This document shows positions 2,192-20,500 of a stretch of DNA of 64,000 nucleotides, in pieces. The translations under genes were made by a program, and so were the position numbers. The DNA comes from an uncultured virus (IMG/VR IMGVR_UViG_3300043568_001465) (lineage: Duplodnaviria; Heunggongvirae; Uroviricota; Caudoviricetes): IMG/VR virus record IMGVR_UViG_3300043568_001465. One strand, 5' to 3'. Below the pieces are notes generated by a model, which worked only from the letters and a program-made list of their open reading frames with translations, ran no database searches and had not been told where the DNA came from. The first letter of the stretch is position 1; every line of letters begins with the position of its first letter.

Positions 2192-3679
2192 ATGAGAACA
2201 GTATTGATAGGATCAGATTTTATGTACGATAAGGATGGTAATTTAAGACCCATCGAAATAAACACTGCGGTTGGTTGGGATGGTCCCGAAAAAGTGGAAG
2301 ACGATGCAGATTGTTTGGATTTAACAAGTTTATATCAATTTGTTGAGGATAATAATTTCCAAACGATACATTATGTTGGTGATATTGGTCCATTACACGT
2401 GACATTAATGACACATTATAGCGGAAGTTCTGTTACATATGAATTTCATGGGGTTGGAGCTACTTCCATTACAGTTCCATACATAGAAGATACTGAAACG
2501 ACTTTAATTATTAGGAGTGCATATGACACAACAGCACTAGTGGATGACACATATTGTAAGGATAAAATAGAGTTCATGAATCTAATTAAAGATTCTTCTT
2601 TTGGCTCCCAATTTGCGTACATTGACGAAAATAACACATTGGTGTCAAATATCACATCTATAAATGATAACGGCGAACACCCTAATTTTATTTTAAAATC
2701 TAGATTTCCAGGTTATGACAAGTTAATTTATCCAAAATTTTTTAAAGTTACAACTCAATCTGAATTAGACACTATAATAGCAAATAATGTTACAAGTGAG
2801 TATTTTTTAATGGAGTACCTATGTAACGTCAATAAACTATGGGAAGGGCATTTAACGGTTATAAGAAGTTTAAACATTTTAGTCCCACCAAATTTAGAAT
2901 CAATTCAAATTGGCCAATATACAAAATTGAATCAAAATATGTTACTAGATAATGTGACATATGATTCAATCACATTTGAAGTATATTCAGATTTCAAAGA
3001 GAGTTATAGTACAAACCCACCTACCGGTTTTCAACCTAAATTATTGAATACTGATATGGTAGAAATGGCAGATGGGACATTAAAAACTGCATTGGATTTA
3101 CAAATTGGGGACGTTATTAAAACAATTGAAATACCAAATGAAAAGGGAACTAGTATAGATAGTTACGTATCCTCCGAATTTGGGCTTACGTACGATACGT
3201 TGGTAAGTGATGCAATATATACAACTAATGTCGTAACCAAAAAACAAAAAGTAAACACCTTAACTTTTATAAATGAATTAACATTTGAAGATGCTAGTAC
3301 CTGGGAAGATACTATGGGCTCAAAGTATTTGATAGACAGAGAAGGTGTGGTTATGTTTAAATCATTATGGGGGATATTTCCAGGAGATGTGGTTATATTA
3401 TTAGATACTACTGATGATAATATAAATTTTGTAAGAAAAACAGTTACATCAAATATTCAAGTTAAGAGAGTGTTCTCTGGTTGGTTTATTTCAGTTGATA
3501 CCGCTATGTTATTTTTAACTAAAACAGCCGGGTCAACCAATAACGAATCATATGTTTCAATTGAACATAACCTTATATCTTGTCCCAATTGGACATGTAC
3601 AAACGTTTGCTGGTCCGTCTGTCCATCATGTCCGAAGTATATGTCTTGTCAATCTAATTACTGTTTTCCAGTATGTTAA
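2192..3679 (+). CDS. Fusion of circularly permuted ATP-grasp-like domain, Hint (intein-like) domain and 35-aa Cys-rich C-terminal peptide
   Basis: N-terminal GSDFMYDKDGNLRPIEINT, then FILKSR and FLMEY (ATP-grasp-type). VEMADGTLKTALDLQIGDVIKT resembles Hint block A; domain ends SIEHN. An 8-Cys tail follows. Confidence 0.65.
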   Translation: MRTVLIGSDFMYDKDGNLRPIEINTAVGWDGPEKVEDDADCLDLTSLYQFVEDNNFQTIHYVGDIGPLHVTLMTHYSGSSVTYEFHGVGATSITVPYIEDTETTLIIRSAYDTTALVDDTYCKDKIEFMNLIKDSSFGSQFAYIDENNTLVSNITSINDNGEHPNFILKSRFPGYDKLIYPKFFKVTTQSELDTIIANNVTSEYFLMEYLCNVNKLWEGHLTVIRSLNILVPPNLESIQIGQYTKLNQNMLLDNVTYDSITFEVYSDFKESYSTNPPTGFQPKLLNTDMVEMADGTLKTALDLQIGDVIKTIEIPNEKGTSIDSYVSSEFGLTYDTLVSDAIYTTNVVTKKQKVNTLTFINELTFEDASTWEDTMGSKYLIDREGVVMFKSLWGIFPGDVVILLDTTDDNINFVRKTVTSNIQVKRVFSGWFISVDTAMLFLTKTAGSTNNESYVSIEHNLISCPNWTCTNVCWSVCPSCPKYMSCQSNYCFPVC

Positions 3680-3708: not shown

Positions 3709-3798
3709 ATGGCAACAATTATATCAAATACAGACATCAATACTTTAAACACCACAATTACAACAATAGGTAGTTTAATTGTAACAGCAAACAGTTAG
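3709..3798 (+). CDS. 29-aa Thr/Ser/Asn/Ile-rich peptide (not in ORF track)
   Basis: MATIISNTDINTLNTTITTIGSLIVTANS*; A-rich leader, fills the gap between co-oriented genes. Confidence 0.55.
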   Translation: MATIISNTDINTLNTTITTIGSLIVTANS

Positions 3799-3821: not shown

Positions 3822-4355
3822 ATGATACATTTCATACCAAATATTCTTACTAAGGATGAGTGTGAATACTTAACGAATCAATTTGATTTCGAAAGAAAAT
3901 ATCAAATCTCGGTGGATAATGAATATACTGGCACCAATATATCATATGGGTTTGCCCCTTCATTTGCGTTTAATACCTATTTAAATAAATTAAAATCAAA
4001 AGTGTTAGAATATAACAATAATTTTGATGATTTATTCAATGTAAACACATTTGTTAGGGAATATATGAACACCTCAATGTTAAAAAAACATTTAGATAGA
4101 AAAGACATTAGTGTTACTATGTCTATATGTTTAGAATCCACAATAAATAAAGAATGGCCGTTATGTGCGGAAATCGGAAATAAGGAATATTGTTTCAACA
4201 CAAATATTGGTGACGGTATTTTATTATTTGATGCGGATAAAATCACACATTGGAGGGAACCCTTAATATGTCTGGAGAAAGAAAGAGTTGTCCAATTTTT
4301 TTTACATTGGAAACCTTCTGATTACGTCGCAAAAAAAACAAAATCATTATTATAA
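3822..4355 (+). CDS. 2OG-Fe(II) oxygenase-like protein
   Basis: LKKHLDR (HxD), ISVT, GDGILL, HWRE, QFFLHW. Confidence 0.7.
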   Translation: MIHFIPNILTKDECEYLTNQFDFERKYQISVDNEYTGTNISYGFAPSFAFNTYLNKLKSKVLEYNNNFDDLFNVNTFVREYMNTSMLKKHLDRKDISVTMSICLESTINKEWPLCAEIGNKEYCFNTNIGDGILLFDADKITHWREPLICLEKERVVQFFLHWKPSDYVAKKTKSLL

Positions 4356-4366
4356 AAAAATAAATT

Positions 4367-4951
4367 ATGCCATTTACATATACAATAGAGTCAACCTTTT
4401 TAACAAAAGAAGAATGTGATTTAATATTAGATTTTTCATTAAAAGAATTAAAATTAGTACCATCGGAAATTCTTACCAATTACACCGATGGTGGCGACGT
4501 TAATACCGATATTAGAAAATCAAATCAAGTATTTTACCCCTATTATAAAAAATTTCCATTTTTATTAGAAAAAATGAGTAAATTATTAAATCAACATATT
4601 TTTGTTAAAGGGTTCGATTTAGATTTTAAAGAAAGTCAATTTCAGTTTACTGAGTATCATCCAGGCGGACATTTTGGCTGGCATAGAGATGCTCATGGAA
4701 AAAAAATAACGGATTATGACAGGTATTGTTCATTAGTGATACAACTAAATGATGAGTATGGAGAGGGTGATTTACAAATAAAAGATGATCAGAATGGGAC
4801 CCTAACAGTTGAAAAGGGTACAGGAAATTTGATATTATTTTTATCAAATATTGAACATAGAGTAGTGCCAGTAAAAAGTGGGATTAGATATACACTAGTT
4901 AATTGGGTGAAATTAAAACAAAAAAAAGATTATAAAAAAACACTTTTATAG
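4367..4951 (+). CDS. 2OG-Fe(II) oxygenase (prolyl-4-hydroxylase/PKHD-like)
   Basis: QFTEY..GGHFGWHRD, SLVIQL, HRVVPVKSGIRYTLVNW. Confidence 0.85.
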   Translation: MPFTYTIESTFLTKEECDLILDFSLKELKLVPSEILTNYTDGGDVNTDIRKSNQVFYPYYKKFPFLLEKMSKLLNQHIFVKGFDLDFKESQFQFTEYHPGGHFGWHRDAHGKKITDYDRYCSLVIQLNDEYGEGDLQIKDDQNGTLTVEKGTGNLILFLSNIEHRVVPVKSGIRYTLVNWVKLKQKKDYKKTLL

Positions 4952-4952
4952 T

Positions 4953-5270
4953 ATGAAAATAAATTTTAAAGAAATATTAAATGCGTGGTATAATGTTATA
5001 AATCACACACCAGAACAAAAGGAATTAGCAGATAAAAGATTCGCAATATGTTTAGAATGCCCCTCTAAAATAGAAATTTTAAAATACAAGAAATGGCTTT
5101 TTAAATGTAAAGAATGTGGTTGCCCTTTAGGCGCAAAAGTTTACACTGAAACAACATATCTTACTAAAGACAAATCTTGTCCACTTGATAAATGGAAAGA
5201 AGTTGAAATGGAATTTATGAGTAAACATAGTGACACGATTAAATATAAAACTAAAAAAACATTTCTTTAG
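4953..5270 (+). CDS. Small Cys-rich metal-binding protein
   Basis: CLEC, CKECGC and CPLDKW motifs. Confidence 0.6.
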   Translation: MKINFKEILNAWYNVINHTPEQKELADKRFAICLECPSKIEILKYKKWLFKCKECGCPLGAKVYTETTYLTKDKSCPLDKWKEVEMEFMSKHSDTIKYKTKKTFL

Positions 5271-5272
5271 TT

Positions 5273-5962
5273 ATGGGTTATTTAATAAACGATGACCTTT
5301 TATGGGTGATCACCCCTAAATGTGCTAGCGACTCAATAGAAACTGCATTATTAAACTCAAGTTTAAATTTAAAAAAATATAGCGAACACTTCGAACAACA
5401 TACCCATATGCATATACCACTAAACGAGTGCTTAACTAAGTTTGGTAAAAAAGAAACAATATGTATCACTAGAGATTGGTTTGAAAAATGGTTAAGTTCA
5501 TTAAATTTTATTTGGGATTATATAGAATTATATAGTGAATATGAACCAGTATGTAAATGGGAGGACATCAATAATAATGTTATTTATGAGATATTTGATA
5601 GCGAATTTGTAAATAAACTTTACTCATTAAATCATACCTCTAATGAAGAATGTTTTTTGAAATTATTAAAAAGGAACACCGAAGATATTATAAACGTACC
5701 CAAAGAAATTTATGGAATAATAATAACTCTAATATCTGAACGCTATTGGAAAAGTAATGTAAAATGCACATATGAATTTGATATTAAAAAATTAGACGAT
5801 TTTGTCAATTTCATTGAAAATAGGTTTGGTGAAAAATTAATAATAGAAAAGAAAAACGTATCTACAAAAAGACCAAATAAATTAATAGTAAATAATGAAT
5901 TGAAATCTTTTGTTTGGGAAAAATTTGAAAAAATATTTGAAAAAAGAAATCAATTAATTTAA
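5273..5962 (+). CDS. Sulfotransferase family 2-like protein
   Basis: PKCASDSI resembles the 5'-PSB loop; H.H; ITRDWFEKWLS resembles the 3'-PB motif. Confidence 0.6.
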   Translation: MGYLINDDLLWVITPKCASDSIETALLNSSLNLKKYSEHFEQHTHMHIPLNECLTKFGKKETICITRDWFEKWLSSLNFIWDYIELYSEYEPVCKWEDINNNVIYEIFDSEFVNKLYSLNHTSNEECFLKLLKRNTEDIINVPKEIYGIIITLISERYWKSNVKCTYEFDIKKLDDFVNFIENRFGEKLIIEKKNVSTKRPNKLIVNNELKSFVWEKFEKIFEKRNQLI

Positions 5963-5963
5963 T

Positions 5964-6632
5964 ATGGCAACTATTTGGACATTTGGGGATTCATTTACTT
6001 CTGGAGACGGGTGTGTAGAAAACCTAAGAATTAGAGACGGTGATTTTAGATATTATAACGAATATAAAAAACTAGGCAGTGATATATGGCCTAATTTATT
6101 AGGTAAAACTTTAGGATATGACGTAAAAAATCTAGGAAAAAGCGGTGCAAGTAATGACTATATTTTAGATTCTATTATTGATAATTTTAACATGATAGAA
6201 CCAAATGATGTGGTGATAATTGAAAAAACATTTTACCAAAGATTTGATATACCTAAATCAACGGGTGATGGGTTTCAAACAATTTATGCTGAAGGACTTT
6301 ATCAACTTTCTATTGATTTAAAAATGGAAAGATATTTTTGTGAAGATAAATTAGAAATTGAAACGGTATTAAATTATGGTGTTTTATTTTCCGACAATAA
6401 ATTATTTAAAGAAAGACAAGATAAACGATTTGAATTTATACAAGCACAATTAAATAATAAAACAGATAAAATATTAATATGGGATGTTTTAGATTTTTTA
6501 GACGGTAAAATTGAAACAATAGGTCAACACACTGAGGGTAATATAAAAGATTATCATTTTAGTTTTAATGGTCATAAAAGATTTAGCGAATTTCTATATA
6601 AAAAATTATATATTAAACCCTCATTAGTTTAA
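5964..6632 (+). CDS. SGNH/GDSL-like hydrolase or acyltransferase
   Basis: FGDSFT, NLGKSGASND, DYHFSFNGH. Confidence 0.7.
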   Translation: MATIWTFGDSFTSGDGCVENLRIRDGDFRYYNEYKKLGSDIWPNLLGKTLGYDVKNLGKSGASNDYILDSIIDNFNMIEPNDVVIIEKTFYQRFDIPKSTGDGFQTIYAEGLYQLSIDLKMERYFCEDKLEIETVLNYGVLFSDNKLFKERQDKRFEFIQAQLNNKTDKILIWDVLDFLDGKIETIGQHTEGNIKDYHFSFNGHKRFSEFLYKKLYIKPSLV

Positions 6633-7364
6633 ATGTTAGTCGATAAAAAATTTATTTTTATAAGTTTACCAAGATGCGCATCAACATCATTTATGATTAG
6701 GTGTGTTAAAAACAAAATACCAATAGAGCATTTCAACTCAAACCATGATAATCAGTTGATTAAAATCAATGAATGGGAAAAAATGGGTAATGAAGAATTG
6801 GCGGATAGATTAGTACATGCGCACGAACCATTACATATGTTACAAGAAAAATTTGGGACGAACAACCAAATTATTTCAATAAAACGAAATAAGTACGATA
6901 GATTTTTATCTTTATGGAAACACATCATAGACGAATTACACAGAATTAACAAACTTGATATTGCTGACATCTTTTCAAAATTAACAACTAATGATCTGTT
7001 TGTTAATATTAAACCAAATGACATTTATAATTCGGAAAATAGAATTAAAGTTATTGATAATTTTTTATCTAGGTTAGAAATTTCAAAAGAAGAATCTTAC
7101 ACTAAAAATATGTTAGATATATTGTTTATGCCAGTAGTTGAACTTACAAATAACGACCCAAATATTATCTGGTTTGATATTAACAGTTTGAGAGATTTAG
7201 AAAATTGGGTGTCAAAAAAACTAAATAGAGATTTTAAAATGGAAAAAATAAATTCAAGTAAACATTTTAATTCAGTAATGGAGAACGATGATAATTTTAA
7301 ACAGAAATATGATAATCTTTATAAAGAATTTGACCAAAGAAAAACAACTAAAACATTATTGTAA
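6633..7364 (+). CDS. Sulfotransferase family 2-like protein
   Basis: FIFISLPRCASTS, HAHE, KRNKYDRFLS, INSS; paralogous to 5273-5962. Confidence 0.65.
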   Translation: MLVDKKFIFISLPRCASTSFMIRCVKNKIPIEHFNSNHDNQLIKINEWEKMGNEELADRLVHAHEPLHMLQEKFGTNNQIISIKRNKYDRFLSLWKHIIDELHRINKLDIADIFSKLTTNDLFVNIKPNDIYNSENRIKVIDNFLSRLEISKEESYTKNMLDILFMPVVELTNNDPNIIWFDINSLRDLENWVSKKLNRDFKMEKINSSKHFNSVMENDDNFKQKYDNLYKEFDQRKTTKTLL

Positions 7365-8533
7365 TGGAAATTCAATTTTGGTATAGCGATATTTTACCAA
7401 ATACAAATATTAGAAATTCAATCGAAAAAATAGATAGTGACATCTTATTTAAAAATATCCACACCGATAAGGTAGATGTTACAAAATTAAATTTTTTATT
7501 TTTTTTGTTAGAAACTGAATGGACTAATTCCGATATCCCAAACATAGCGTATACTCATTCTAGTGAATTTATTGAATTACTAATTAAGTTACAATCTGAA
7601 AATTTCTATTTTATGTGTAATAATTCTGGGGAAGCCGAACTTTGGGTGGATAATTTATCCTTGAATTTTTTTAATTTGTTAAAAAAAAATAAAATTGATT
7701 TTAACAGATTAATAATTGTAAATAACGATTCATCTAAAATTGGTATAGGTAAAACAAAATATGGGGATTTTATATTAAACACCTGTTTTTTTCCTAATTT
7801 CTTTTTATCTACCTATGAGCATTTAAAGTCATATGTAACTGAATTAAACCCTAACACCATACCTGATAAAAAATTCTTATGTTTAAATAGAAGAATGGGT
7901 TATGAAAAATATAAATTAATCGAGAGGTTATATCATATGGGGTTGTTAAATGACACCAGATTTTCTTGGGTAAAAAATAGCACGAATAAAAATCTGTTAA
8001 ATAAAGAATTACTTAATGAATTAAACATAGATGTTGATAACTTTAACCCTATTCAGTTAGAAGATGATGTAATGTATGGTGCTGATTTAGTTATGGAAAA
8101 GTATCTTTACACCATAAACCCCAAATGGTATTATAAAAGTAAAGTTAATATTATATTGGAAACAATGCTATACCCAAATTCAATTCATCTGACAGAAAAA
8201 ACCTGGAAAGCAATTTATTTAGGTGTCCCGTTTGTTATATATTCACCATCTAAACACTATCTTAAAACCTTAAGGGATATGGGATTCAAGACATTTAATT
8301 CTGTGATTAATGAGGATTATGATGAGATGCTAGGTAAAGATAAAATAACACAAGTTATAAAAAGCGCTGAAGAACTGGCTAGTATCTATGACACCCCCAA
8401 AGTATTAGATATATGTAGATTTAACCAAGAATTATATTTTAATTTTCAACACAGAAAAAAAATATATAATGAGTTTTTTTTAAATAAAATTTGTGATGTT
8501 AAAAACTTAACAATTCCTAAAACATTAATTTAA
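7364..8533 (+). CDS. Conserved phage protein, possibly glycosyltransferase-like
   Basis: KFLCLNRR, VNIILET, LTEKTWKAI..GVPF, LRDMGFKTF...INEDYD; 389-aa ORF coupled to both neighbours. Confidence 0.5.
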   Translation: MEIQFWYSDILPNTNIRNSIEKIDSDILFKNIHTDKVDVTKLNFLFFLLETEWTNSDIPNIAYTHSSEFIELLIKLQSENFYFMCNNSGEAELWVDNLSLNFFNLLKKNKIDFNRLIIVNNDSSKIGIGKTKYGDFILNTCFFPNFFLSTYEHLKSYVTELNPNTIPDKKFLCLNRRMGYEKYKLIERLYHMGLLNDTRFSWVKNSTNKNLLNKELLNELNIDVDNFNPIQLEDDVMYGADLVMEKYLYTINPKWYYKSKVNIILETMLYPNSIHLTEKTWKAIYLGVPFVIYSPSKHYLKTLRDMGFKTFNSVINEDYDEMLGKDKITQVIKSAEELASIYDTPKVLDICRFNQELYFNFQHRKKIYNEFFLNKICDVKNLTIPKTLI

Positions 8534-9583
8534 ATGGGTAATAAAATTGATTTAAAAAATTATACGTGTAGTGTGCCATTTACATCATTAGAAATACATA
8601 ACAATGTTTGTTTTGTGTGCTGTCCATCCTGGTTACCAAACAAAGTAGAACTTAGTGAAATTCCATTAAAAGATGTTTATAATAGCGAACCAATTATTGA
8701 TATAAGAAACTCGATATTAGATGGTTCATTTAGATATTGTAGTCAAGAGCTTTGTCCTTATTTAAGTAAATTAGTGAAGTATGGTGCGGAATCTGGGCCA
8801 GTCACTTTAAAATCAAATTCAAATGTTAATAGCCCTATTGTAAAAAATAACGCACCAGATTATTTGATGATGAATTTTGATAGAACATGTAACTACAAAT
8901 GTCCATCATGTAGAGTTGATTTAATAGTTGAAAATAGTGAGGGTATAAAACGTGTAGAAAAAACAATAGAGGAGATTGATAATCACTACTCGAAATATGT
9001 TAAAACCCTATATATTACTGGATCAGGGGATCCGTTTGTTTCTGTCGGATTCAGAAATTATCTAAGAAATTTTAACCCTAAAAAATACCCAAACTTAAAT
9101 TCCATACACCTACACACAAATGCGTCTATGTGGAATAAAGAAATGTGGGATAGTATGCCAAACATACACGGATATGTCCACTCTTGTGAAATTAGCATCG
9201 ACGCTGGTACAAAAGACACCTATGAAAATAAAACCAGGTTGGGTGGTAAATGGGATAATTTAATTGATAATTTAAAATTCATAAGCACTCTACCAATTTC
9301 AGTTAAAACATCATTTGTGGTTCAAGATTCCAATTACATGGAAATGGGTATTTTTTACAACTTAATGTACTCAATATTTGGTAAAAGAGTAAATGTGTTT
9401 TTTGGTAAGATAACTAATTGGGGGACATTTTCAGAAGGTGAATTTAAATTAAAACAAGTATGGGATACGGAACATCCAGAACATGAGTTATTTAAAAAAG
9501 AGTTTAATAAAGTATGGAAAAATGAAAACCTTTTTCATAATTTATATGAGTTTATTGACAACACAAATAAAACTTTAATATAG
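8534..9583 (+). CDS. Radical SAM protein with N-terminal SPASM/twitch-like Cys cluster
   Basis: CNYKCPSC (CxxxCxxC); N-terminal CSVPF, VCCPSW and C...CPY; GSGDPF, HTNA, SIDAG. Confidence 0.85.
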   Translation: MGNKIDLKNYTCSVPFTSLEIHNNVCFVCCPSWLPNKVELSEIPLKDVYNSEPIIDIRNSILDGSFRYCSQELCPYLSKLVKYGAESGPVTLKSNSNVNSPIVKNNAPDYLMMNFDRTCNYKCPSCRVDLIVENSEGIKRVEKTIEEIDNHYSKYVKTLYITGSGDPFVSVGFRNYLRNFNPKKYPNLNSIHLHTNASMWNKEMWDSMPNIHGYVHSCEISIDAGTKDTYENKTRLGGKWDNLIDNLKFISTLPISVKTSFVVQDSNYMEMGIFYNLMYSIFGKRVNVFFGKITNWGTFSEGEFKLKQVWDTEHPEHELFKKEFNKVWKNENLFHNLYEFIDNTNKTLI

Positions 9584-10144
9584 ATGAGAATTTTAATACT
9601 ATCACATACAAGATGTGGTTCTACCACATTATGTAAATGGATATCAAAAGAATTGAATTTTGAAGTAGATTATGATCATTACGATGCTAACACATTTAAT
9701 TCAATTTTCATTAAAAATAATATAATAAAAAAAATTGTTATCGAAGAATACAATCCACCAAATGAAGTTATTGAAAAATTTGATAAAGTTATTTGTTTAA
9801 GTAGGGAAAATAATATTGACAGTGCCATAAGTTTTATTAATGCTGATAACAAAAGCAGGTGGCACGACATATATGAAATAACAAATGAGTGGATTGAAGA
9901 TAATAAAAATAAAATAATAGAAACTGTTTACAAATATGAACAATTAAAAACCTTATTAAAAAATAAAGATTTATTTCAAATAACGTATGAAAATATGTAT
10001 ATTAATAAAATAGACGTTAATAGAGTTATTAGTTATTTAAACATTGAAAACCCAAAACATTTGGATATGCTTGATTATGATAAAAAATATAGAAAAGACA
10101 CATATACTTTAACACATGATTTTAAGAGAAAAAATATCATTTAG
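9584..10144 (+). CDS. Sulfotransferase-like protein (Stf0-type P-loop)
   Basis: ILSHTRCGSTTL, LSRENNIDSAIS, ITYE. Confidence 0.65.
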   Translation: MRILILSHTRCGSTTLCKWISKELNFEVDYDHYDANTFNSIFIKNNIIKKIVIEEYNPPNEVIEKFDKVICLSRENNIDSAISFINADNKSRWHDIYEITNEWIEDNKNKIIETVYKYEQLKTLLKNKDLFQITYENMYINKIDVNRVISYLNIENPKHLDMLDYDKKYRKDTYTLTHDFKRKNII

Positions 10145-10646
10145 TAAAGATGAGTGTGATTACATAATAAATTTATCCAAAGAGTTGGATGAACTTAAAC
10201 CATTTGGTTATGATGACAATGTTAATAAAGAAAAAATAACAATTAGATATTTTGTTTGGGTTATCAATAGAAACAATAAAACCCAATGGATATTTGATAA
10301 AATTCAAACGTATTTTATAAATAAAACTAATATAAAGATAAAAAAAGAATTAGATAAAATATATATACACAAATATGACACCGGCCAACAATTTGAAAAA
10401 CATGCTGACACATATTATAAAACACAAATACACAATGTAGGGGTATGTTTAAACAATGATTATGATGGAGGTGAATTTGTTTTATATAATCCAGAAGAAC
10501 AATTACCAAAAGAAACGGGTAACATATATACTTTCCCTAGTCAAAGAATACATGAAGTAAAAAAAATAATAAAGGGTGAAAGGTGGAGCATTATTGGATT
10601 TTTACATATTGATAATTTAGATTTCCCTAAAAAATCACTAATATGA
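10116..10646 (+). CDS. 2OG-Fe(II) oxygenase
   Basis: FEKHAD, LNNDYDGGEF, HEVKKIIKGERWS. Confidence 0.85.
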   Translation: MILREKISFSKDECDYIINLSKELDELKPFGYDDNVNKEKITIRYFVWVINRNNKTQWIFDKIQTYFINKTNIKIKKELDKIYIHKYDTGQQFEKHADTYYKTQIHNVGVCLNNDYDGGEFVLYNPEEQLPKETGNIYTFPSQRIHEVKKIIKGERWSIIGFLHIDNLDFPKKSLI

Positions 10647-11200
10647 AAATTGGAATAACAGGACATTCTAACGGAATTGGAAATGACATTTATTCAAATT
10701 TAATAAAAGAATATGATGTTATAGGATTTAGTAGAAGTAATGGTTTTGATATTAAAAATACGGATAAAATTATAGAACAATTGGATGATTGTGATATTTT
10801 TATAAACAACGCTTACGAAGGAAACTATCAAACAATATTATTTGAATTAATTTTTGATAAATGGAAATTTTTACCAAAAACAATTATTAATATGAATAGC
10901 AGTTGTGTGTATCATTCATCCGATTGGTCGCCAGAATATGCAAATAATAAAAAAGAGTTAAAAGAAGTATCTTTAAATGCGATTAGAAATAATAAAAATA
11001 AAAAAGTTAGGGTCATAAATTTATATCCATCCACCTTATCAACTCATATGGGGTTTGAAAGTTTAAATAAATTAGATACTGAAAATCTTGCAAAAATTAT
11101 AAATTGGTTAATAAAACAACCACAAGAAATAGAAATTAGAGAGATGAGTATATATTGTACAACATTGGAGAAAGAATTTAAAACAAATAAATTAATATGA
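10643..11200 (+). CDS. Short-chain dehydrogenase/reductase-like protein
   Basis: ITGHSNGIG, FINNA, YANNK (YxxxK). Confidence 0.75.
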   Translation: MKIGITGHSNGIGNDIYSNLIKEYDVIGFSRSNGFDIKNTDKIIEQLDDCDIFINNAYEGNYQTILFELIFDKWKFLPKTIINMNSSCVYHSSDWSPEYANNKKELKEVSLNAIRNNKNKKVRVINLYPSTLSTHMGFESLNKLDTENLAKIINWLIKQPQEIEIREMSIYCTTLEKEFKTNKLI

Positions 11201-11967
11201 AATCAATAAAATTTTGGAATAAAAGCGGATTCGATGTTGCAACTTATAAATGGAATTTATCAGAAAGACGTAATAAAACATTTAATGGCTCTGGTTCGGA
11301 TGATAGTGAAACCAATACCTACACATATAATGAACTAGGATTCAGAGGTGATTCAATATACAAGGATGGTTTTAGAATTCTGTCTGTCGGTTGTTCACAT
11401 ACGGAAGGTGTGGGGGTAAATGACTGGGAAACTTGGCCGCATATATTTTCTAGGTTAATACCTAATGGTATTGATTTAAATGCTGGGTTTGGTGGTAGAA
11501 GTAATGATTACATTGCTAGGTGTATTGTGTCCTTAATTGACACCTTTAGACCCAATCTGGTTAATCTAATGTACACATACCCCTCAAGAAAAGAATACTA
11601 CAAGTTTAATGGGGATTTAGAGCCCTTTCATATGACCCCCTGGGGATATTTCAAAGAAGATTCGGAAGGTGTTGATGAATACAAGGCAATCGCAAAGATA
11701 ACCCATGATGAAAATGATTTGATTAATTGGTATAAAAATCATTTATTAATAACCAATTTCCTATCACTAAGAAAAATCCCATATACTTGGAATGGTTCTT
11801 TTCTAATGGATGAAGTTATATCAGATAAACATCGTTTTGATGGTGACTATGGTAACTTCAGAGAGTTTTCCGTTGACGGTAAACATGCAACAGGAAAACA
11901 CAATGAAGAATATGCCAAAAATTTATATGACTTCATTAAGAAAAACTTCCCAACATATATCCCTTAG
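11197..11967 (+). CDS. SGNH-like phage protein
   Basis: YNELGFRG, GCSHTEGVG, GGRSND, DGKH. Confidence 0.6.
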   Translation: MKSIKFWNKSGFDVATYKWNLSERRNKTFNGSGSDDSETNTYTYNELGFRGDSIYKDGFRILSVGCSHTEGVGVNDWETWPHIFSRLIPNGIDLNAGFGGRSNDYIARCIVSLIDTFRPNLVNLMYTYPSRKEYYKFNGDLEPFHMTPWGYFKEDSEGVDEYKAIAKITHDENDLINWYKNHLLITNFLSLRKIPYTWNGSFLMDEVISDKHRFDGDYGNFREFSVDGKHATGKHNEEYAKNLYDFIKKNFPTYIP

Positions 11968-12008: not shown

Positions 12009-14729
12009 ATGAATATATTAGCACATACGTCGTTTATTGGTACCACTGGGTATGCCAATCATGCAAGGTCGTTTTTCTGCGCCTTAAACAAGTATCACAA
12101 AGTAAGGGTTAGAAACCTTACCATTGGTAATAGTTGGAATGATTATAATGAAAAGCCACACGAAGGCGAATCATATATCACTGATGAGATGAAGGATATG
12201 TTAATCCTTCAAAGTTTGTTTAACGCTGATGGTTCAACTAGTGATTATCCAATTTATAACTTTAAAAAAGATTTTGTTCCAGATGTCCACATTGTTTTGG
12301 TGGAAACCGACAACATTTATTTTTATCATGATTATGATGGCTATAAAATAGCGTACAATGTTTGGGAATCAACATTATATCCAGATAATTTCTTCAAGCG
12401 ACTATTTTACTTTGATGAGGTTTGGGTGCCGACCAAGTGGCAGTTTGATTGTTTAGTTGCGCAAGGGTATCCTGCTGAAAAAATATCTATAGTTCCAGAA
12501 GGTGTTGATGTTGACACATTTAAACCAATAGAAAAATACCCACAAAGAGATAAGATTAGATTTGTGTATTTTGGTCGTTGGGATTATAGAAAAGGAACGA
12601 CTGAAGTACTCAGAGCTTTTGGTGAGGTCTTTAAAGATGTTGATGATGTAGAATTAATTGCATCTGTTGAGAACCCGTACCCGAACGATGGTTTAAAGTC
12701 AACAGAGGAACGAATTAAAAAACACGAAATTGATACAGAGAAAATAACGTTTCTTAATTTTCCATCGAGAGAAGAATATGTAAAATACTTACAAGAAGCA
12801 CATGTATTTGTTTCTTGTGCTAGAAGCGAAGGTTGGAATCTACCGCTTATTGAAGCGATGGCTTGCGGTACGCCGGCCATTTATTCTAATTGGGGTGGTC
12901 AACTAGAATTTGCTGAAGGTAAAGGTGTTCCGGTTAGTATCAAGGAATTAAGACCTGCTAACATAGAAAGAAAAGAATTTCCAGGTGAATATTGTGAACC
13001 AGATTGGGATGACCTTAAATGGAAAATGAGACAAGCGTACGATTATCAAACAGCTATGTGGATTAAATCCAGATCTGATGCTAAAGATATTCACAAGAAC
13101 TTTAATTGGGAAACAATAGCTGAAAACGCATCAAAAATAATCAACTCTAGATTCAAGTCATTTGCATTTGTTACAACTGGTAACTTACAATATATGCCGG
13201 TTATTGAAAAGTTGGTACAATCATTAATGATGTTTTCAAGACACAAGATAATTGTTTATGGTGTTGATTGTGAAGTGCCGTTTGATTATCCTAATGTGAT
13301 TAGAAAAACAATCAATCCACCCAAAATATCAGAACACGATAAATGGTATTGGAAACAATGGGCTTGTTTGGAATCATTAAACGAAGATTTTGATTATTAT
13401 ATTTGGGTTGACGGTGATGTTGTTGTTAATTACAATATCGATACCGTTACAAAATATTTCAAACATGTTGGTAGATATCCATTGTCGGATATACATGTTC
13501 AAGAAGAATTCTTTGGAACATATGATGACGGTAAAACGCAATTGTTTAATGAAGAGTTAGCTAAAAGATGGGGTGTTGAAAAACAACAACCATACATGCA
13601 TATTTGTTTCTACATTTACAATCAAGGTTCAAGAGCATTTTTTGATGGTATATTGGGATATTATGACACAATGATGAAAGGTAGCCCTGAAGATTATAAA
13701 CGATATTTTTTATGGAATGATGAAGGTATTGATAATGCAATAAGATGGAACCACGGTTTTACTAATCATTTACCTATATCAAATTTTGACACATCATCAT
13801 ATGATGGGGATGAAGGGTTTATTGATAAAACGTTACATCAGTTTTATAAGTTCTGGAATGAAGATGGTCCACAAAACTTCAATAGAATATTTGGGTATCA
13901 ATTTATACCAGAAGATAAATCAAATATATTATATTTCCACGGGAATAAGAATGCTGAGATATCGGACAAGATGATTGAGTTTATTAAAATGAAAAGAGAT
14001 GATTCATTTTATAAGTCATATTGTTTTTATACTGACGTATATAAATTGGAAAACTTTAATCAATATTTCAATATTGAAGGGGGTACAATTGAGATAGCAA
14101 ACAAACATGGTTGGTTTGTTGCCATATTTCACGAGATATTTAATCTTTTGGATTATTATAAAAATAGAGAGAGAAGAATCTTTGATGGCGACGTTGTAGT
14201 TGAGTTGGGTGGGAATATCGGCATCTTTAATAGATGGGCGTACAGTCAAGGTGCTAGCAAAGTTATTTCGTTTGAGCCAGATAAAAGATACTTTAAACTT
14301 CTCTCATTAAATGCTGATCCGCGTTCTGTATTATTCAATGCTGCGGGAAGTGATTCTATTGGTGAATTAAGTTTATTTGAGAGCACACACATAGGTGGAT
14401 CTAATTTATTTGGAACACAGGAAGGTGCTAAAGAATATAAGGTAAGAACATATACGCTAGATTATCTTTTTGAAACGGGGTTAGTTGATAAAATAGATTT
14501 TCTAAAGGTAGACATTGAGGGAGCAGAACATCACGCGTTCAAAGGTATCAGCGATGAAAACCTAATGAAAGTTAAAAACATTTCAATGGAATATCACCAT
14601 AGCCACTTTGATTATGACGAAGAATTGAGACAAGATTTAATTAATCGTATGGTTAGATTAGGTTTTAACCCCTACACATTGTTTATGGGTGACAATAACG
14701 CACTACAAATGATATATTTTACAAGATGA
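12009..14729 (+). CDS. Tri-domain protein: GT4 glycosyltransferase, GT-A-like domain, FkbM methyltransferase
   Basis: RSEGWNLPLIEAMACG (GT4); WVDGD (DxD); VVELGGNIG, SFEP and LKVDIEGAE (FkbM). Confidence 0.85.
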   Translation: MNILAHTSFIGTTGYANHARSFFCALNKYHKVRVRNLTIGNSWNDYNEKPHEGESYITDEMKDMLILQSLFNADGSTSDYPIYNFKKDFVPDVHIVLVETDNIYFYHDYDGYKIAYNVWESTLYPDNFFKRLFYFDEVWVPTKWQFDCLVAQGYPAEKISIVPEGVDVDTFKPIEKYPQRDKIRFVYFGRWDYRKGTTEVLRAFGEVFKDVDDVELIASVENPYPNDGLKSTEERIKKHEIDTEKITFLNFPSREEYVKYLQEAHVFVSCARSEGWNLPLIEAMACGTPAIYSNWGGQLEFAEGKGVPVSIKELRPANIERKEFPGEYCEPDWDDLKWKMRQAYDYQTAMWIKSRSDAKDIHKNFNWETIAENASKIINSRFKSFAFVTTGNLQYMPVIEKLVQSLMMFSRHKIIVYGVDCEVPFDYPNVIRKTINPPKISEHDKWYWKQWACLESLNEDFDYYIWVDGDVVVNYNIDTVTKYFKHVGRYPLSDIHVQEEFFGTYDDGKTQLFNEELAKRWGVEKQQPYMHICFYIYNQGSRAFFDGILGYYDTMMKGSPEDYKRYFLWNDEGIDNAIRWNHGFTNHLPISNFDTSSYDGDEGFIDKTLHQFYKFWNEDGPQNFNRIFGYQFIPEDKSNILYFHGNKNAEISDKMIEFIKMKRDDSFYKSYCFYTDVYKLENFNQYFNIEGGTIEIANKHGWFVAIFHEIFNLLDYYKNRERRIFDGDVVVELGGNIGIFNRWAYSQGASKVISFEPDKRYFKLLSLNADPRSVLFNAAGSDSIGELSLFESTHIGGSNLFGTQEGAKEYKVRTYTLDYLFETGLVDKIDFLKVDIEGAEHHAFKGISDENLMKVKNISMEYHHSHFDYDEELRQDLINRMVRLGFNPYTLFMGDNNALQMIYFTR

Positions 14730-15382
14730 GTACACTAGATAAATTAGCAAAAATGCACGGAACTGATAAGAGTTCTGATATACACAATTACTGTGTTAAG
14801 TATGAAAAGTATCTACCATTTAATCGTTATGATAAGTTAATGATGATGGAGATTGGTGTGTTAGATGGTAAATCCTTATTAACTTGGAAGGATTATTTTT
14901 ATCGTTCACACATTCTAGGTATTGATATAAATCCTGAATGTAAAAAATACGAAGAAGAAAGAATTACAATTGAGATTGGTTCTCAAGCTGATGGTGGTTT
15001 CTTATCTAGAACCAGCGAACATTATGGGCCATTTGACATCATTTTAGATGATGGTTCACATATGAATGACCATGTAACTTATTCTTTCCAGCATTTATTT
15101 GATTCAGTAAAACCAGGTGGCGTTTATATTGTTGAAGATTGTGCCACGGCTTACTGGGATGAATATGGTGGCGGTTATTTAAAACCAAGTACAAGTATAG
15201 AATATTTTAAATCCTTATCAGATGATTTAAACTTCCGTGGACTAATGAATCACAACAAACCAAATGTACACGCAAGAAGGGAAGATTGGTTAATTGAAAA
15301 TTCAAAAAGCATCCCAACATGTAGAACGGATATTGAATCCATAAATTTCCTAAATGGAATTATTATTGTAACTAAGAGATAA
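14726..15382 (+). CDS. Class I SAM-dependent (sugar) O-methyltransferase
   Basis: GTDK..HNY, EIGV, GIDI, GSQAD, DIILDDGSH, GGVYIVED. Confidence 0.8.
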   Translation: MSTLDKLAKMHGTDKSSDIHNYCVKYEKYLPFNRYDKLMMMEIGVLDGKSLLTWKDYFYRSHILGIDINPECKKYEEERITIEIGSQADGGFLSRTSEHYGPFDIILDDGSHMNDHVTYSFQHLFDSVKPGGVYIVEDCATAYWDEYGGGYLKPSTSIEYFKSLSDDLNFRGLMNHNKPNVHARREDWLIENSKSIPTCRTDIESINFLNGIIIVTKR

Positions 15383-17505
15383 TGTACACACAATTCACTG
15401 AAGATATATTTGTAATTGATTGTTGGCTTGACACTAAAGAGAAAGAGCTAGCACTAACTAATTTAATTGAAAGGGTTAAAGTTTATAATATACCAATAAT
15501 ACTATGTGGTCACTACCCAATTAAACCTGAGTTCCAAGAAATGGTTGATTATTGTATCTATGACAAGAACAATGACATTTTAGAAGAAAAGGATTTTGAA
15601 GAGTATGGTGTTGTTAGTGATAGATGGACAGAGACAGACGATTTTAAAATAAGTAACAAGGTTACATTTCACCATGATTATGCTATATGGTTAACAATGA
15701 AGAATGCTTTTAACCTAGCAAATCAATTGGGTAAGAAATACATACACTTTCTTGAGTACGATAACCTACCAGATGAGATTCAATATCGTCAAGCGTTTAT
15801 TGAATACATCAGACATCACGATGCGGTTGTTTATGAATATAGTGAAGGATCAACTAATGAACCATCACCCTTTTCGGCTACGTACATATTTTCAATTAAA
15901 ACTGACATCGCATTAAGTTTGGTTAATAAGATTAATAGTAAGAAGGAGTTCTTTTTACGAAAACAACATGAATGGCAATTAGAAAAAACATTCTACCAAA
16001 CATTACAAACTGTAACTAAAAGAATATTTGTTACAAAATACATAGCAAATGATGACGAGTTAAATCTTTTTGCTGCTTGGAATAGGGATGGTATTAATAG
16101 AAACGGCGCTAGATTTCAAACATATCTATGTGTTGATGATAATGAAGATTTGTCAATCCATTTTATATCTGGTTTTAATGATAAACCGGCCACACAAGAT
16201 TATGTGGTTGAAATCAACTATGGTGATGTTAAAGAGTTTTACAAAATTATCATAGGTAATTTTCATTTAAAAAAACTTGGTAAATACATTAAAGGATTAC
16301 CTGTTATAGTTTATTATCAAGGCGTACAAGTATTTTCTGATTTACTTATTGATGATGTTAAAGAATTTAAACGAAAGAATAATATAACAAGAAAAAACAA
16401 AGAGATATCAAAAAACATTAATGTTAATTTTGTTGATGGACCATTCATTGAGATACTAGAAAAAACCGCCAAAGAATATCGTATTGAATTTATTGATAAT
16501 AAAAGTGGAAGAGTTTTACATGAAACAAATATTAAAAGTAATCACTGGGCGAAAGCATCAATAAAATATTATGTTGATTGGTTAATTAAGGTGAGTGGTG
16601 TTGATAACGATTTTTATTTTGAGCATAAATTTAACCCTAATGAAAATAGATTCTTCATTAGTTTTGAGAGCAAATCATTAGGTGACAGTTTAGCATTTAT
16701 ACCATATGTGGATGAGTTTAGAAAGAAACATAATTGTTCAGTTGTTTGTTCAACATTCTTTAACGATTTATTTAAAAATGAATACCCAGAAATTGAGTTT
16801 GTTTCACCTGGTTCAACTGTTAATAACATCTACGGTCTTTATCGAATCGGTATGTTCTATAATGATTCTAAAATGATTGATTATGATAAACATTTGACCG
16901 ACCCCAAAAAGGAGCCATTATTAAAAATTGCATCAGATATTTTAGGTTTAGATTATAAAGAGGTTAGACCTAAGTTACCAAAAATTGGTAACACTAAACA
17001 GAAATTAGTAACTATAGCAATTCATTCTACAGCACAAGCGAAATATTGGAATAACCCAACTGGTTGGCAAGATGTTGTTGATTACTTAATTGGTAAAGGA
17101 TACGAGGTTAGGTTGTTATCAAAAGAAGAAGACGGTTACATGGGTAACATTCATCCAAAAGGTATAACACAACAACCTGCTGGTGATTTAAACAGCGTAA
17201 TTAAGACAATACAAGAATCAGAATTCTTTATTGGGATTAGTAGCGGGTTGAGTTGGTTGGCGTGGGGATGTGGAACACCAACAATATTAATATCCGGATT
17301 TACAGATGTATTTGCAGAACCATTTCAAAACATTTACCGAGTAATAAATAAAGAAGTTTGTAATAGTTGTTGGTCCGATTATGATTTTGACGCCGGTAAC
17401 TGGAAGTGGTGCCCAGTACATTCAAATACTGATAAACAATTTGAATGTTCTAAACAAATAACATCAAAACAAGTTATAGGGGAAATTGATAAATTAATTA
17501 ACTAA
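15382..17505 (+). CDS. Protein O-heptosyltransferase (AAH/TibC family) with extra N-terminal GT-like domain
   Basis: C-terminal half has SLGD..A..PY, STAQAKYWNNPTGW, FIGISSGLSWLAW, ISGF, VCNSCW, WCP and FECSKQIT (iron-binding Cys set of this family). Confidence 0.8.
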   Translation: MYTQFTEDIFVIDCWLDTKEKELALTNLIERVKVYNIPIILCGHYPIKPEFQEMVDYCIYDKNNDILEEKDFEEYGVVSDRWTETDDFKISNKVTFHHDYAIWLTMKNAFNLANQLGKKYIHFLEYDNLPDEIQYRQAFIEYIRHHDAVVYEYSEGSTNEPSPFSATYIFSIKTDIALSLVNKINSKKEFFLRKQHEWQLEKTFYQTLQTVTKRIFVTKYIANDDELNLFAAWNRDGINRNGARFQTYLCVDDNEDLSIHFISGFNDKPATQDYVVEINYGDVKEFYKIIIGNFHLKKLGKYIKGLPVIVYYQGVQVFSDLLIDDVKEFKRKNNITRKNKEISKNINVNFVDGPFIEILEKTAKEYRIEFIDNKSGRVLHETNIKSNHWAKASIKYYVDWLIKVSGVDNDFYFEHKFNPNENRFFISFESKSLGDSLAFIPYVDEFRKKHNCSVVCSTFFNDLFKNEYPEIEFVSPGSTVNNIYGLYRIGMFYNDSKMIDYDKHLTDPKKEPLLKIASDILGLDYKEVRPKLPKIGNTKQKLVTIAIHSTAQAKYWNNPTGWQDVVDYLIGKGYEVRLLSKEEDGYMGNIHPKGITQQPAGDLNSVIKTIQESEFFIGISSGLSWLAWGCGTPTILISGFTDVFAEPFQNIYRVINKEVCNSCWSDYDFDAGNWKWCPVHSNTDKQFECSKQITSKQVIGEIDKLIN

Positions 17506-17528: not shown

Positions 17529-17550
17529 CTAAGTATAATACCATATTTAG

Positions 17551-20500
17551 ATGAATATATTTGACGCACACATATCGGGATCATTATCCGTATCAAGTTC
17601 AGCCGAAATTTCGGGTGATTTAAAAGTTTTAGGAACAATTAGTGGTTCCTTTAGTGGTGATGGCTCTAATATCACAAACATCCCAGCGGGTGGTGTTGTT
17701 GGACTTAATTTAACACGAATAGCTGACGGTGCATCAACAGCATCAATTTCAAATACAGATGGTTTAAGAATTAATACAAATTCAGAAATTACTGGTTCAT
17801 TAATTATAACCGGTGATTTAATTATAAGTGGAACATCTTTTAATGCCGCGACCTCAGGTACATCTGGTACATCAGGAACCTCAGGTACATCTGGAACCTC
17901 AGGGTCTTCAGGTTCAAGTGGAACATCAGGTACTAGTGGAACTAGCGGAACCTCAGGAAGTTCAGGATCAAGTGGAACATCGGGATCAAGTGGAAGTTCT
18001 GGTTCTAGCGGAACGTCAGGTACGAGTGGTTCTTCAGGTACATCTGGCACATCAGGAACCTCAGGTTCATCGGGAAGTTCGGGTACGTCTGGAACCAGCG
18101 GAAGTTCTGGGTCATCAGGTACAAGTGGAACATCTGGTTCATCCGGAAGTTCTGGTTCTAGTGGAACATCGGGATCAAGCGGTACCTCAGGCACTAGTGG
18201 AACCTCAGGATCAAATGGTAGTTCGGGCACGAGTGGTTCTTCGGGTTCATCTGGAAGTTCGGGTACGTCAGGTACTAGTGGAAGTAGCGGTTCTTCAGGA
18301 ACATCTGGTTCTTCAGGAACATCAGGTTCAAGTGGTAGTTCTGGTACTAGTGGAAGTAGTGGTTCTTCAGGAACCGCTGGAACTTCAGGAACCTCAGGTT
18401 CTAGTGGTAGTTCTGGAACATCAGGTTCTAGTGGATCTAGCGGAACCGCTGGTACAAGTGGTACATCGGGATCTTCTGGTTCTAACGGGTCGTCAGGTAC
18501 TTCAGGAACAAGCGGAACATCTGGTTCATCAGGAACTTCAGGTTCATCAGGTTCTAGTGGAACGAGCGGTAGTTCTGGTTCATCAGGAACATCAGGTTCT
18601 AACGGGTCGTCAGGTACTTCAGGAACAAGCGGAACATCTGGTTCATCAGGAACTTCAGGTTCATCAGGTTCTAGTGGAACATCTGGGTCTTCAGGGTCAA
18701 GCGGTACATCAGGTTCAAGCGGAAGTTCAGGAACATCCGGAAGTTCAGGGTCTAGTGGTACAGCGGGGACATCAGGAACCTCAGGTTCTAGTGGATCTAG
18801 TGGATCTAGCGGAACCGTAACAATGAGCGGAACACAAGACAATGGTGTTCTAACACTTAATGGTTCCTCACCAAACGTAACTGCGGAAAATAATTTAAGA
18901 TTTGATGGTTCACTTTTAACCGTTGTTGGTAACGAAACAATATCTGGTTCCTTAATTGTGACAAACAATTTTACAGTATTAGGTTCATCCTCAATAACAT
19001 ACGTAACATCATCTCAATTAAGAGTTGAAGACAATATTATCACAGTAAACACTGCTAGCCCTGGATCTAGATTTGGTGGACTAGAAGTTCATGATTCAGG
19101 ATCGGTTGGTATTGCTACTGGTTCAATTCTTTGGGATTCTGTTAACAATAGATGGATTTATCAAAACTCAAGTGAGGCGGGTTATGGTGGCGGTGTATTA
19201 TTGTCAGGTCCTAGAAGTTCTGGTTCACTAGGTAGTGAATTAACATTAACTAGTGGTAGAGTTGCAAAGTCAGCGGGCGGAGACCACTTAAATGATTCAA
19301 ATATAACAGACAACGGTACAACCGTTTCGATAAATTCAAATACAGAAATCACTGGTTCATTAATTGTTACTGGTGGTAATAAATTAGTTGTAAATGCTAC
19401 TGGTGGTGATGAAGGTGGTGAAATTTTATTAGGGAAAGCGTTAACTAATACAACACTTGTTGGTGAGGGAGTTACAGTAGATATTTGGCAAAATAGATTA
19501 AGATTTTTTGAACAAGGTGGAACTGCGAGAGGTGCATATATTGATATCTCAAGTTTAGCGGCAGGTGTTGGTACCAACCTGGTTGGTGCTGGTTCATCAG
19601 GTACTTCTGGAACTAGTGGTACCTCTGGCACATCGGGTTCTAGTGGAACATCAGGATCTAATGGTTCGTCTGGTACGTCAGGTTCATCAGGAACAAGTGG
19701 TACAAGTGGTAGTTCAGGATCTAATGGTTCATCTGGCACGTCAGGGTCTTCAGGGTCTAGCGGAACATCGGGATCTAATGGTTCATCTGGCACGTCAGGA
19801 ACATCGGGTTCTAATGGTTCTAGTGGAACATCAGGTTCTTCAGGTTCTAGTGGAACATCTGGTTCATCCGGAAGTTCTGGTTCAAGTGGGACCTCAGGTT
19901 CTTCAGGTAGTTCAGGTTCATCCGGAACAAGTGGAAGTTCGGGAACATCAGGTTCTAATGGTTCTAGTGGAACATCAGGTTCTTCAGGTAGTTCAGGGTC
20001 AAGCGGAACGTCTGGGTCTTCAGGTTCTAGTGGTACTTCGGGTACTTCAGGAAGCTCAGGAACAAGTGGGTCTTCAGGTTCTTCTGGATCTAGTGGAACA
20101 TCGGGTTCTAACGGATCTAGTGGTACGTCGGGTTCATCAGGTTCTAGCGGTTCTAGTGGAACTTCAGGTTCTTCTGGTTCTAGCGGAAGTTCAGGAACAA
20201 GTGGATCTTCAGGGTCTAGTGGTTCAAGTGGAACCAGTGGTAGTTCGGGGAGTTCTGGTTCAAGTGGAACATCTGGGTCTTCAGGAAGTTCTGGTTCTAG
20301 CGGGTCTTCTGGTACGTCAGGTACTTCTTTTGCTAATAGTTTTAATATAAATCAAAATTTAGGAACAAGTAACTCACCAACATTTGGTGGTTTAACAATT
20401 ACAGGTGGTGGTTCAGTTAGCACAGTATTAACAGGTGCTAACGTTGGTGACTTATTGTATGCATCAATTGCTGATAACGATTATTTCAGATTAAGAGTTG

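Follow-up and report, generated by a model that had tools for sequence, protein, structure and literature searches.

The window studied here is a stretch of 64,000 nucleotides from the IMG/VR virus record IMGVR_UViG_3300043568_001465, the DNA of which comes from a viral contig of 80.6 kb. PHROG matches to a tail fibre, a thymidylate synthase and DNA methyltransferases identify the contig as that of a tailed phage. Near the start of the window, in a region with a G+C content of 25–28% compared with ~ 32% elsewhere, eleven back-to-back genes on the plus strand (3822–11200) encode proteins that all end in a short tail of the type [K/N]-[T/S/K/N]-[L/I/F]-[L/I/V]. The run adjoins the gene of a 495-amino-acid protein with predicted ATP-grasp and Hint folds (2192–3679), here called the ligase-Hint gene, and a small gene for a peptide of 29 amino acids. 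An earlier sequence-only reading of the window had pointed to this neighbourhood and to the shared tail; both neighbouring genes are real and conserved, and its list of the eleven C-termini is exact according to the translations. The tails stop after the run, as had also been noted, the next three genes ending in PTYIP, YFTR and VTKR. On inspection of the sequences, none of the eleven proteins has an obvious signal peptide at its N-terminus.

The family counts given in the following refer to clusters of 1529 open reading frames (ORFs) from the loci of relatives and from the contig itself, and a protein is called tagged if it carries the C-terminal tail. In gene order, the run begins with two 2-oxoglutarate (2OG) oxygenase-like enzymes. 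The first (3822–4355) ends in KSLL (codons 4341–4352), and 22/22 members of its family end in two aliphatic residues (cluster 14); the second (4367–4951; PF13640; KTLL, 4937–4948) has a fold closest to protein prolyl-4-hydroxylases (4iw3_A, E = 2e-11). They are followed by a Cys-rich protein of 105 amino acids (4953–5270; KTFL, 5256–5267; 50/54 of the family tagged, cluster 5), a putative sulfotransferase-like enzyme (5273–5962; NQLI, 5948–5959; 40/40 tagged, cluster 6), a GDSL/SGNH-like enzyme with weak GDSL matches (5964–6632; PSLV, 6618–6629; 18/19 tagged, cluster 16), a second putative sulfotransferase-like enzyme (6633–7364; KTLL, 7350–7361; 26/26 tagged, cluster 12) and a protein of 389 amino acids that was assigned to no known family (7364–8533; KTLI, 8519–8530; 18/18 tagged, cluster 17). 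The eighth gene (8534–9583; PF04055; KTLI, 9569–9580) encodes a radical S-adenosylmethionine (SAM) enzyme whose family members end in two aliphatic residues in 83/83 cases. A sulfotransferase-like enzyme with a weak Stf0 match (9584–10144; KNII, 10130–10141; 60/60 tagged, cluster 3) is encoded by a gene that overlaps the start of the next one, which codes for a further 2OG oxygenase (10116–10646; PF13640; KSLI, 10632–10643) with orthologues that retain K-[KT]-[SL]-L-I. The run closes with a short-chain dehydrogenase/reductase (SDR)-like enzyme (10643–11200; NKLI, 11186–11197; 9/9 tagged, cluster 27). Of the folds proposed earlier for these proteins, 2OG oxygenase (PF13640) and radical SAM pass the Pfam cut-offs, while GDSL/SGNH and SDR (adh_short) fall below them. 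The sulfotransferase label is backed by one weak Stf0 match (E = 0.05) and partly by what we take to be a P-loop-like motif; Pfam searches at E up to 5 gave weak matches only for the unassigned proteins of the island, as we call the variable gene set around the run, and the sulfotransferase labels therefore stay putative.

The tails are not explained by the general composition of the contig. In a crude ORF call on the whole contig (110 ORFs with ATG starts, longest non-overlapping, with C-termini independent of the choice of start), two terminal residues from the set LIVFM were found in 11/11 genes of the run compared with 10 of the 99 other ORFs (Fisher p = 8.3e-10), and the longest run of such ends, 11, was equalled in 0 of 100,000 shuffles. 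Inside the eleven proteins, LIVFM dipeptides occupy 207 of 2444 positions (0.085), and the tail pattern, a 4-mer defined post hoc, occurs at 19 of them. The comparison with the other ORFs of the contig, which the sequence-only reading had proposed, thus shows an enrichment in the run. Two similar ends that it had mentioned on the minus strand, VSKILL and KNFNLI, are present and consistent with the background rate of ~ 10%; neither gene has a homologue in the complete genome of a large relative (G001, 335,630 bp). The shared tail of the eleven neighbours is real and strongly non-random.

With the radical SAM protein as query, IMG/VR yielded 92 matching stretches, of which 80 loci with 65–100% identity were kept. 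In homologues of every run gene, down to ~ 22% identity, the tail is kept while the codons change and the sequence after the stop codon differs. The variation of codons that had been noticed within the run extends to the homologues, in which Thr is encoded by ACA, ACT, ACG or ACC, Leu by TTA, TTG, CTT, CTA or CTC and Ile by ATA, ATT or ATC. Among 400 unique tagged genes, the last position is mostly Ile (298) or Leu (84) and position −2 Leu (310) or Ile (72), followed inwards by Thr (166), Ser (69), Lys (61) or Asn (47) at −3 and by Lys (222) or Asn (89) at −4. Within families, identity is maximal at the last two residues (0.73 and 0.77, compared with 0.36–0.50 at −5 to −13), and untagged families show no peak of identity at the C-terminus.

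These data also bear on a nucleotide-level origin, in which the tail would come from AT-rich sequence where the following gene of a translationally coupled pair is initiated, or would be a recombination scar at the boundaries of gene cassettes. The tight packing of the run, with −29 to +11 nt between neighbours, and the gene content of the island, which differs between relatives, would fit such an origin. The same holds for the only codon bias in the tail, the preference of the terminal Ile for ATA (0.64 compared with 0.46 in gene bodies), which matches ATATGA overlaps. However, the codon usage of Leu, Thr, Lys, Asn and Ser in the 400 tails equals that of the gene bodies, Ser being encoded by AGT (23%) beside TCN, and the tail keeps a constant position with respect to the stop codon and not with respect to the next ATG. 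The tail is found in 145/146 genes of tagged families that overlap the next gene, in 93/94 with a distance of 0–5 nt and in 37/50 with 6–20 nt, and it is likewise kept where no downstream gene is close (26/26 at 21–60 nt, 37/39 at more than 60 nt and 10/11 without a neighbour on the same strand), whereas 0/102 tightly coupled genes (overlap or 0–5 nt) of untagged families carry it. In the window, the tail of the gene at 9584–10144 lies downstream of the next start codon (10116), as had been pointed out before, and the earlier argument that the tail reflects neither the initiation region of the next gene nor AT bias agrees with codon usage and neighbour distances alike. Codon usage, residue-specific positions and independence of distance, the last for families sorted by the tail itself, largely exclude that the tail stems from coupled translation, from AT bias or from a scar in the DNA, and the highly improbable nucleotide-level origin can be regarded as largely refuted. 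The tail is a motif selected at the protein level.

The distribution of the tail among families is clearly bimodal, with 21 families at least 80% tagged and 45 families at most 10% tagged, a split that uses the tail itself. The eleven proteins of the run occupy 10 of the 21 tagged clusters. In G001, one 10-kb bin directly after the ligase-Hint gene contains 9 tagged genes out of 13, compared with 43/386 elsewhere, and in a second large relative (G002, 211,784 bp) 16/33 genes around the ligase-Hint gene are tagged compared with 10/181 elsewhere. Four more distant loci, with radical SAM proteins ~ 35% identical, have the same core module around the ligase-Hint gene, flanked on either side by genes with K-x-[LF]-[ILVF] tails. 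The consensus of the tail is the same across clades of the ligase that are only 25–28% identical to each other; covariation of the consensus with the ligase clade, considered as a pointer to the reader of the tail, was rejected because no shift was found. A search of the region at the DNA level against 50,697 phage records gave no match.

Conservation of the tail depends on how far a homologue is from the island. Of the 120 best homologues of the oxygenase at 4367–4951 (60–99% identity), 119 end in Thr and two hydrophobic residues. Homologues of the radical SAM protein lose the tail as they become more distant, with 17/30, 4/30, 2/30, 2/30 and 6/30 in the best 150 of 2626 cluster representatives, a nameless library in which cellular members are not distinguishable. 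Homologues of the oxygenase in cultured phages are less than 35% identical, their alignments stop at residue 180–181, short of the tail, and no tail was present in the three that were translated (two from Synechococcus phage S-MbCM6, one from Stenotrophomonas phage DLP_6). Of the earlier expectation that homologues in related phages keep the tail and cellular ones lack it, the first half is borne out; the lack of the tail extends to distant and cultured-phage homologues, among which cellular ones could not be separated. Since these outsiders have no tail, it belongs to the island and not to the enzyme families. These comparisons show a tail that is specific to the island and was acquired by many families independently of each other.

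Upstream of the tagged genes lies a conserved, untagged core module of an APS-kinase-like protein, a DUF2061 protein, the 495-amino-acid ATP-grasp/Hint protein and a small ORF, all on the plus strand. The 495-amino-acid protein has no Pfam match. Its model (mean predicted local distance difference test, pLDDT, 82.7) gave Foldseek matches to bacterial intein-like (BIL) and intein folds (best 6y75_B, E = 5.8e-7, target template-modelling (TM) score about 0.7) and to glutathione synthetase (1m0t_B) and E. coli YgiC (7uk8), both with E about 1e-5 and a low TM score of 0.27–0.34. The protein is thus modelled with an ATP-grasp fold, glutathione-synthetase-like, in the N-terminal half and a Hint/intein fold with a terminal His-Asn in the C-terminal half. 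In 37 aligned relatives His459-Asn460 is invariant and precedes a hypervariable Cys-rich end, the length and sequence of which change from nearly every relative to the next and which looks like a self-released peptide. No invariant Cys was found at the N-terminal junction of the Hint domain in these relatives, which suggests that the domain performs C-terminal cleavage only. Neither a tblastn search of 50,697 phage records with this protein (no match) nor a phmmer search of PDB sequences (nothing meaningful) yielded a relative. The small protein of 29 amino acids (3709–3798), ending in IGSLIVTANS, lies between the ligase-Hint gene and the first tagged gene. A small ORF is found at the same place in 37/37 distinct versions listed and, depending on the ligase clade, encodes 24–30 amino acids ending in LI[VI]xANS or 44–50 amino acids of different sequence.

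The APS-kinase-like P-loop protein (602–1063; PF01583, E = 2.5e-17; APS, adenosine 5'-phosphosulfate) ends in KKLSL, is untagged and is conserved in relatives. A further gene at 1572–1952 matches the C-terminal part of the same PHROG kinase family and is separated from it by a 2OG-oxygenase-like/DUF6445 gene (1060–1575); in G001 the two halves are adjacent, yet still separate ORFs. The DUF2061 protein (1952–2167; PF09834, E = 1.5e-15; ending in KDKK, untagged), encoded directly upstream of the ligase-Hint gene, is a small, highly conserved membrane protein with two helices, 77–86% identical in relatives whose ligase is only 27–49% identical. Due to this conservation it was considered as reader of the tail; however, fusions of DUF2061 with APS kinase exist in the protein database (P0338, P0339) and tie it to sulfate activation instead, so that it stays an unsupported candidate. 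In the literature we found only passing mentions of DUF2061. At the very start of the window, a paralogue of the radical SAM protein (27–596, the ORF beginning before the window) ends in HNFNHLL. This end was rejected as a tag, because distant homologues have HNFHHLL followed by further residues, and it looks like part of the fold.

We propose, with about even confidence, that the tail serves as a short linear motif by which the interchangeable tailoring enzymes of the island dock at, or are addressed to, a common reader. In the model of the oxygenase at 4367–4951 (mean pLDDT 86.8), the last strand ends at residue 185 and residues 192–194 have a pLDDT below 50, and the tail is thus predicted to be a flexible, disordered extension. 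Unrelated, interchangeable enzymes would have gained it on recruitment into one variable island in a clade of large uncultured phages. A flexible Lys/Asn/Thr-rich linker would then present K-[T/S]-L-I-COOH at the extreme C-terminus, and the two terminal aliphatic side chains together with the free carboxylate would plug each enzyme into one common reader. Prolyl-hydroxylase-like oxygenases, the radical SAM enzyme and sulfotransferase-like, SGNH- and SDR-like proteins might in this way be brought to a shared substrate or site. We infer that the tail binds a reader, and infer likewise which one this may be: the ATP-grasp/Hint module with its small partner protein is the leading, unproven candidate for such a reader or hub, the 495-amino-acid protein possibly being the precursor as well.

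Several observations weigh against a docking function of the tail and against this reader. Six-frame searches of the present record (G000) and of G001 and G002 found no reader domain: PDZ_2 and PDZ_6 (PF13180, PF17820) gave 0 matches, with controls found in 14/14 genomes and the host outside the search, TPR_12 gave none, and encapsulin (PF04454, Linocin_M18) and PqqD (PF05402) gave 0 matches each, PqqD being absent also from the Pfam matches of the enzymes in the window. Of the earlier view that the tail is a common docking, targeting or degradation peptide, the selected protein-level motif on unrelated enzymes stands, while a reader of the PDZ, TPR or encapsulin type was not found. In favour of this reader, the 495-amino-acid protein, proposed before as a partner, received weak support in a complex prediction with the oxygenase at 4367–4951, with a median interaction prediction score from aligned errors (ipSAE) of 0.33 (runs 0.33, 0.02 and 0.38) compared with 0.00 for the best of three controls; runs agreed in at least 35% of contacts and the pLDDT of the partner was at least 75. 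The mark applied to such predictions is reached by 116/157 solved complexes and 2/215 mismatches, and scores that reach it at 0.60 or under come from only 18 of the 157 solved complexes and from both passing mismatches. No interface was returned, so that no contact can be ascribed to the tail. Of 81 sources, 55 contain the ligase-Hint gene and 7 a relative of 912 amino acids, and the remaining 19 contigs reach less than 4.8 kb beyond the radical SAM gene on its upstream side; this co-occurrence is partly built in and weak evidence, as 80 loci were found via one island gene. The family counts are for their part partly circular because of the way in which the families were split. Finally, the large enzymes of the island (glycosyltransferases, methyltransferases and the carbamoyltransferase) have no tail; recruitment, if any, is thus not needed by all island enzymes.

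Apart from the nucleotide-level origin discussed above, the tail might be a degron, in which a basic stretch and a hydrophobic C-terminus are read by a ClpX-type unfoldase, perhaps that of the host acting with the phage's own ClpP, so that the tailoring enzymes are removed on schedule. We consider this unlikely. The predicted disorder of the tail would be suitable, and both large relatives encode a ClpP-family protein (G001, C1:212668–213195, E = 4e-58; G002, C1:125722–126249, E = 2e-56) encoded amid primase, methyltransferase, SbcC-like and sigma-factor genes rather than next to head genes, although PHROGs label it a head maturation protease. The MuA tag (C-motif-2 of ClpX; CILEQNRRKKAI; PMC12723719), as far as the portions of that paper drawn on here describe it, likewise consists of basic residues followed by a hydrophobic C-terminal residue; it lacks the two terminal aliphatics of the phage tail with their strict order of Leu and Ile, as well as the Thr/Ser at −3. 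Moreover, the tail is enriched in one island only, as seen in the two large relatives, whereas a general degron of the host should turn up on further short-lived proteins of the phage as well. An address for the membrane or the surface, with a polybasic linker and two aliphatics holding the enzymes at the anionic inner membrane, where the DUF2061 protein or lipid-linked or exported substrates would be placed, seems to us quite unlikely. The tails are Lys-rich with two aliphatics at the end, the core module includes the conserved membrane protein, and the sugar and sulfate chemistry of the island (APS kinase, glycosyltransferases, carbamoyltransferase, UDP-glucose dehydrogenase) would be in line with such a location. 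However, two aliphatics are a weak anchor, a general affinity for membranes would not require Leu at −2, Ile at −1 and Thr/Ser at −3, the glycosyltransferases, usually the membrane-proximal enzymes, are without the tail, and the fusions of DUF2061 link it to APS kinase and not to tagged enzymes. Very unlikely in our estimate is that the tail, instead of being a passive docking peptide, serves as substrate handle of the neighbouring glutathione-synthetase-like ATP-grasp ligase. Ligases of this class activate the C-terminal carboxylate of a peptide; here, every tagged enzyme would have its L-I-COOH end activated by the ligase and coupled to an amine, for instance the N-terminus of the Cys-rich peptide released by the Hint domain via Asn cyclisation. 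If true, this would be phage-encoded protein tagging, with the enzyme set receiving a variable Cys-rich address module.

A docking or address motif for a common reader would have parallels in known systems. The class I PDZ-binding motif, x-[S/T]-x-hydrophobic-COOH, similarly comprises an extreme C-terminal tail with a free carboxylate in a disordered region. Ser/Thr at the PDZ position P-2 together with a hydrophobic P0 is found in part of the tails, namely in 8 of the 11 tails of the window and in 235 of the 400 unique tails, the rest having Lys, Asn or other residues. In contrast to PDZ ligands, Leu at −2 of the phage tail is also strongly fixed and 27% of the tails have Lys or Asn at −3. 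Bacterial PDZ proteins are mostly periplasmic, whereas the tagged enzymes are without signal peptides and the three phage records without a PDZ domain. In the biosynthesis of peptides that are made by ribosomes and modified after translation (RiPPs), a leader peptide is recognised by PqqD-like elements that each tailoring enzyme carries. The island resembles this arrangement in that unrelated tailoring enzymes are encoded around one predicted self-cleaving protein that bears a Cys-rich, hypervariable peptide, and the enzymes would need a common way to find that protein. However, the logic would be inverted, since the shared peptide is on the enzymes here and on the substrate in RiPPs, and PqqD is lacking in G000–G002. 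Other C-terminal tips bind to a hub, such as the SSB tail, the clamp-binding tails of T4 gp43, gp55 and gp33 and the cargo-loading peptides of encapsulins. As is proposed for the phage tail, a C-terminal stretch of a few residues on a flexible linker lets unrelated proteins reach a single partner. Unlike these tips, the phage tail lacks a Gln/aromatic clamp motif, an acidic-Pro-Phe and a Gly-Ser-Leu cargo motif, an encapsulin gene is absent from G000–G002, and the tagged proteins are tailoring enzymes for small molecules or peptides.

C-terminal tags that grant unrelated proteins access to one partner are thus known for clamps, SSB, PDZ scaffolds, encapsulins and proteases. To our knowledge, no such tag is known for a natural-product-like set of tailoring enzymes in a virus, and our literature search found no paper that deals with a C-terminal tag shared by tailoring enzymes of phages or with a phage protein of the ATP-grasp/Hint type. 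Should the tag direct interchangeable enzymes to a single precursor or site, this would explain how single-gene cassettes can be swapped freely while the enzymes still cooperate, and the tag would offer a portable handle of 5 residues for building enzyme assemblies. The identity of the reader would also tell what the widespread ATP-grasp/Hint/Cys-rich-peptide module produces. The tag is in any case a simple marker for spotting such islands in metagenomes.

Downstream of the run, the first untagged gene (11197–11967, plus strand; end PTYIP) belongs to a mixed family in which 51 of 72 members elsewhere end in NLI, KSLI or KLI. It is followed on the same strand by three large untagged enzymes (12009–17505) identified by Pfam: a protein with glycosyltransferase family 4 (GT4) and FkbM methyltransferase domains, a methyltransferase and a GT9-containing protein. 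Orthologues of the GT4-FkbM protein (0/16) and of the methyltransferase (0/14) are untagged as well. In relatives, the carbamoyltransferase is untagged and the UDP-glucose-dehydrogenase-family protein is tagged. The tail-fibre gene (17551–21417) has long collagen-like Gly-[Ser/Thr]-Ser repeats. Iyer et al. 2010 (PMC2938197) described tandem dioxygenase arrays in cyanophages (Syn9) as well as operons that combine 2OG oxygenases and sulfotransferases with tail-collar or collagen-like proteins, and the present locus resembles them in having 2OG oxygenases of the peptide-modifying type and sulfotransferase-like genes near a collagen-like tail fibre. It differs from them in the shared tail, which is unmentioned in the portions of that paper drawn on here and absent from the three cultured-phage homologues, and in the ligase-Hint protein, which has no counterpart among the 50,697 phage records. 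Opposite the tail-fibre gene, the minus strand contains an ORF of 473 codons (17547–18968), which is probably a by-product of the repeat.

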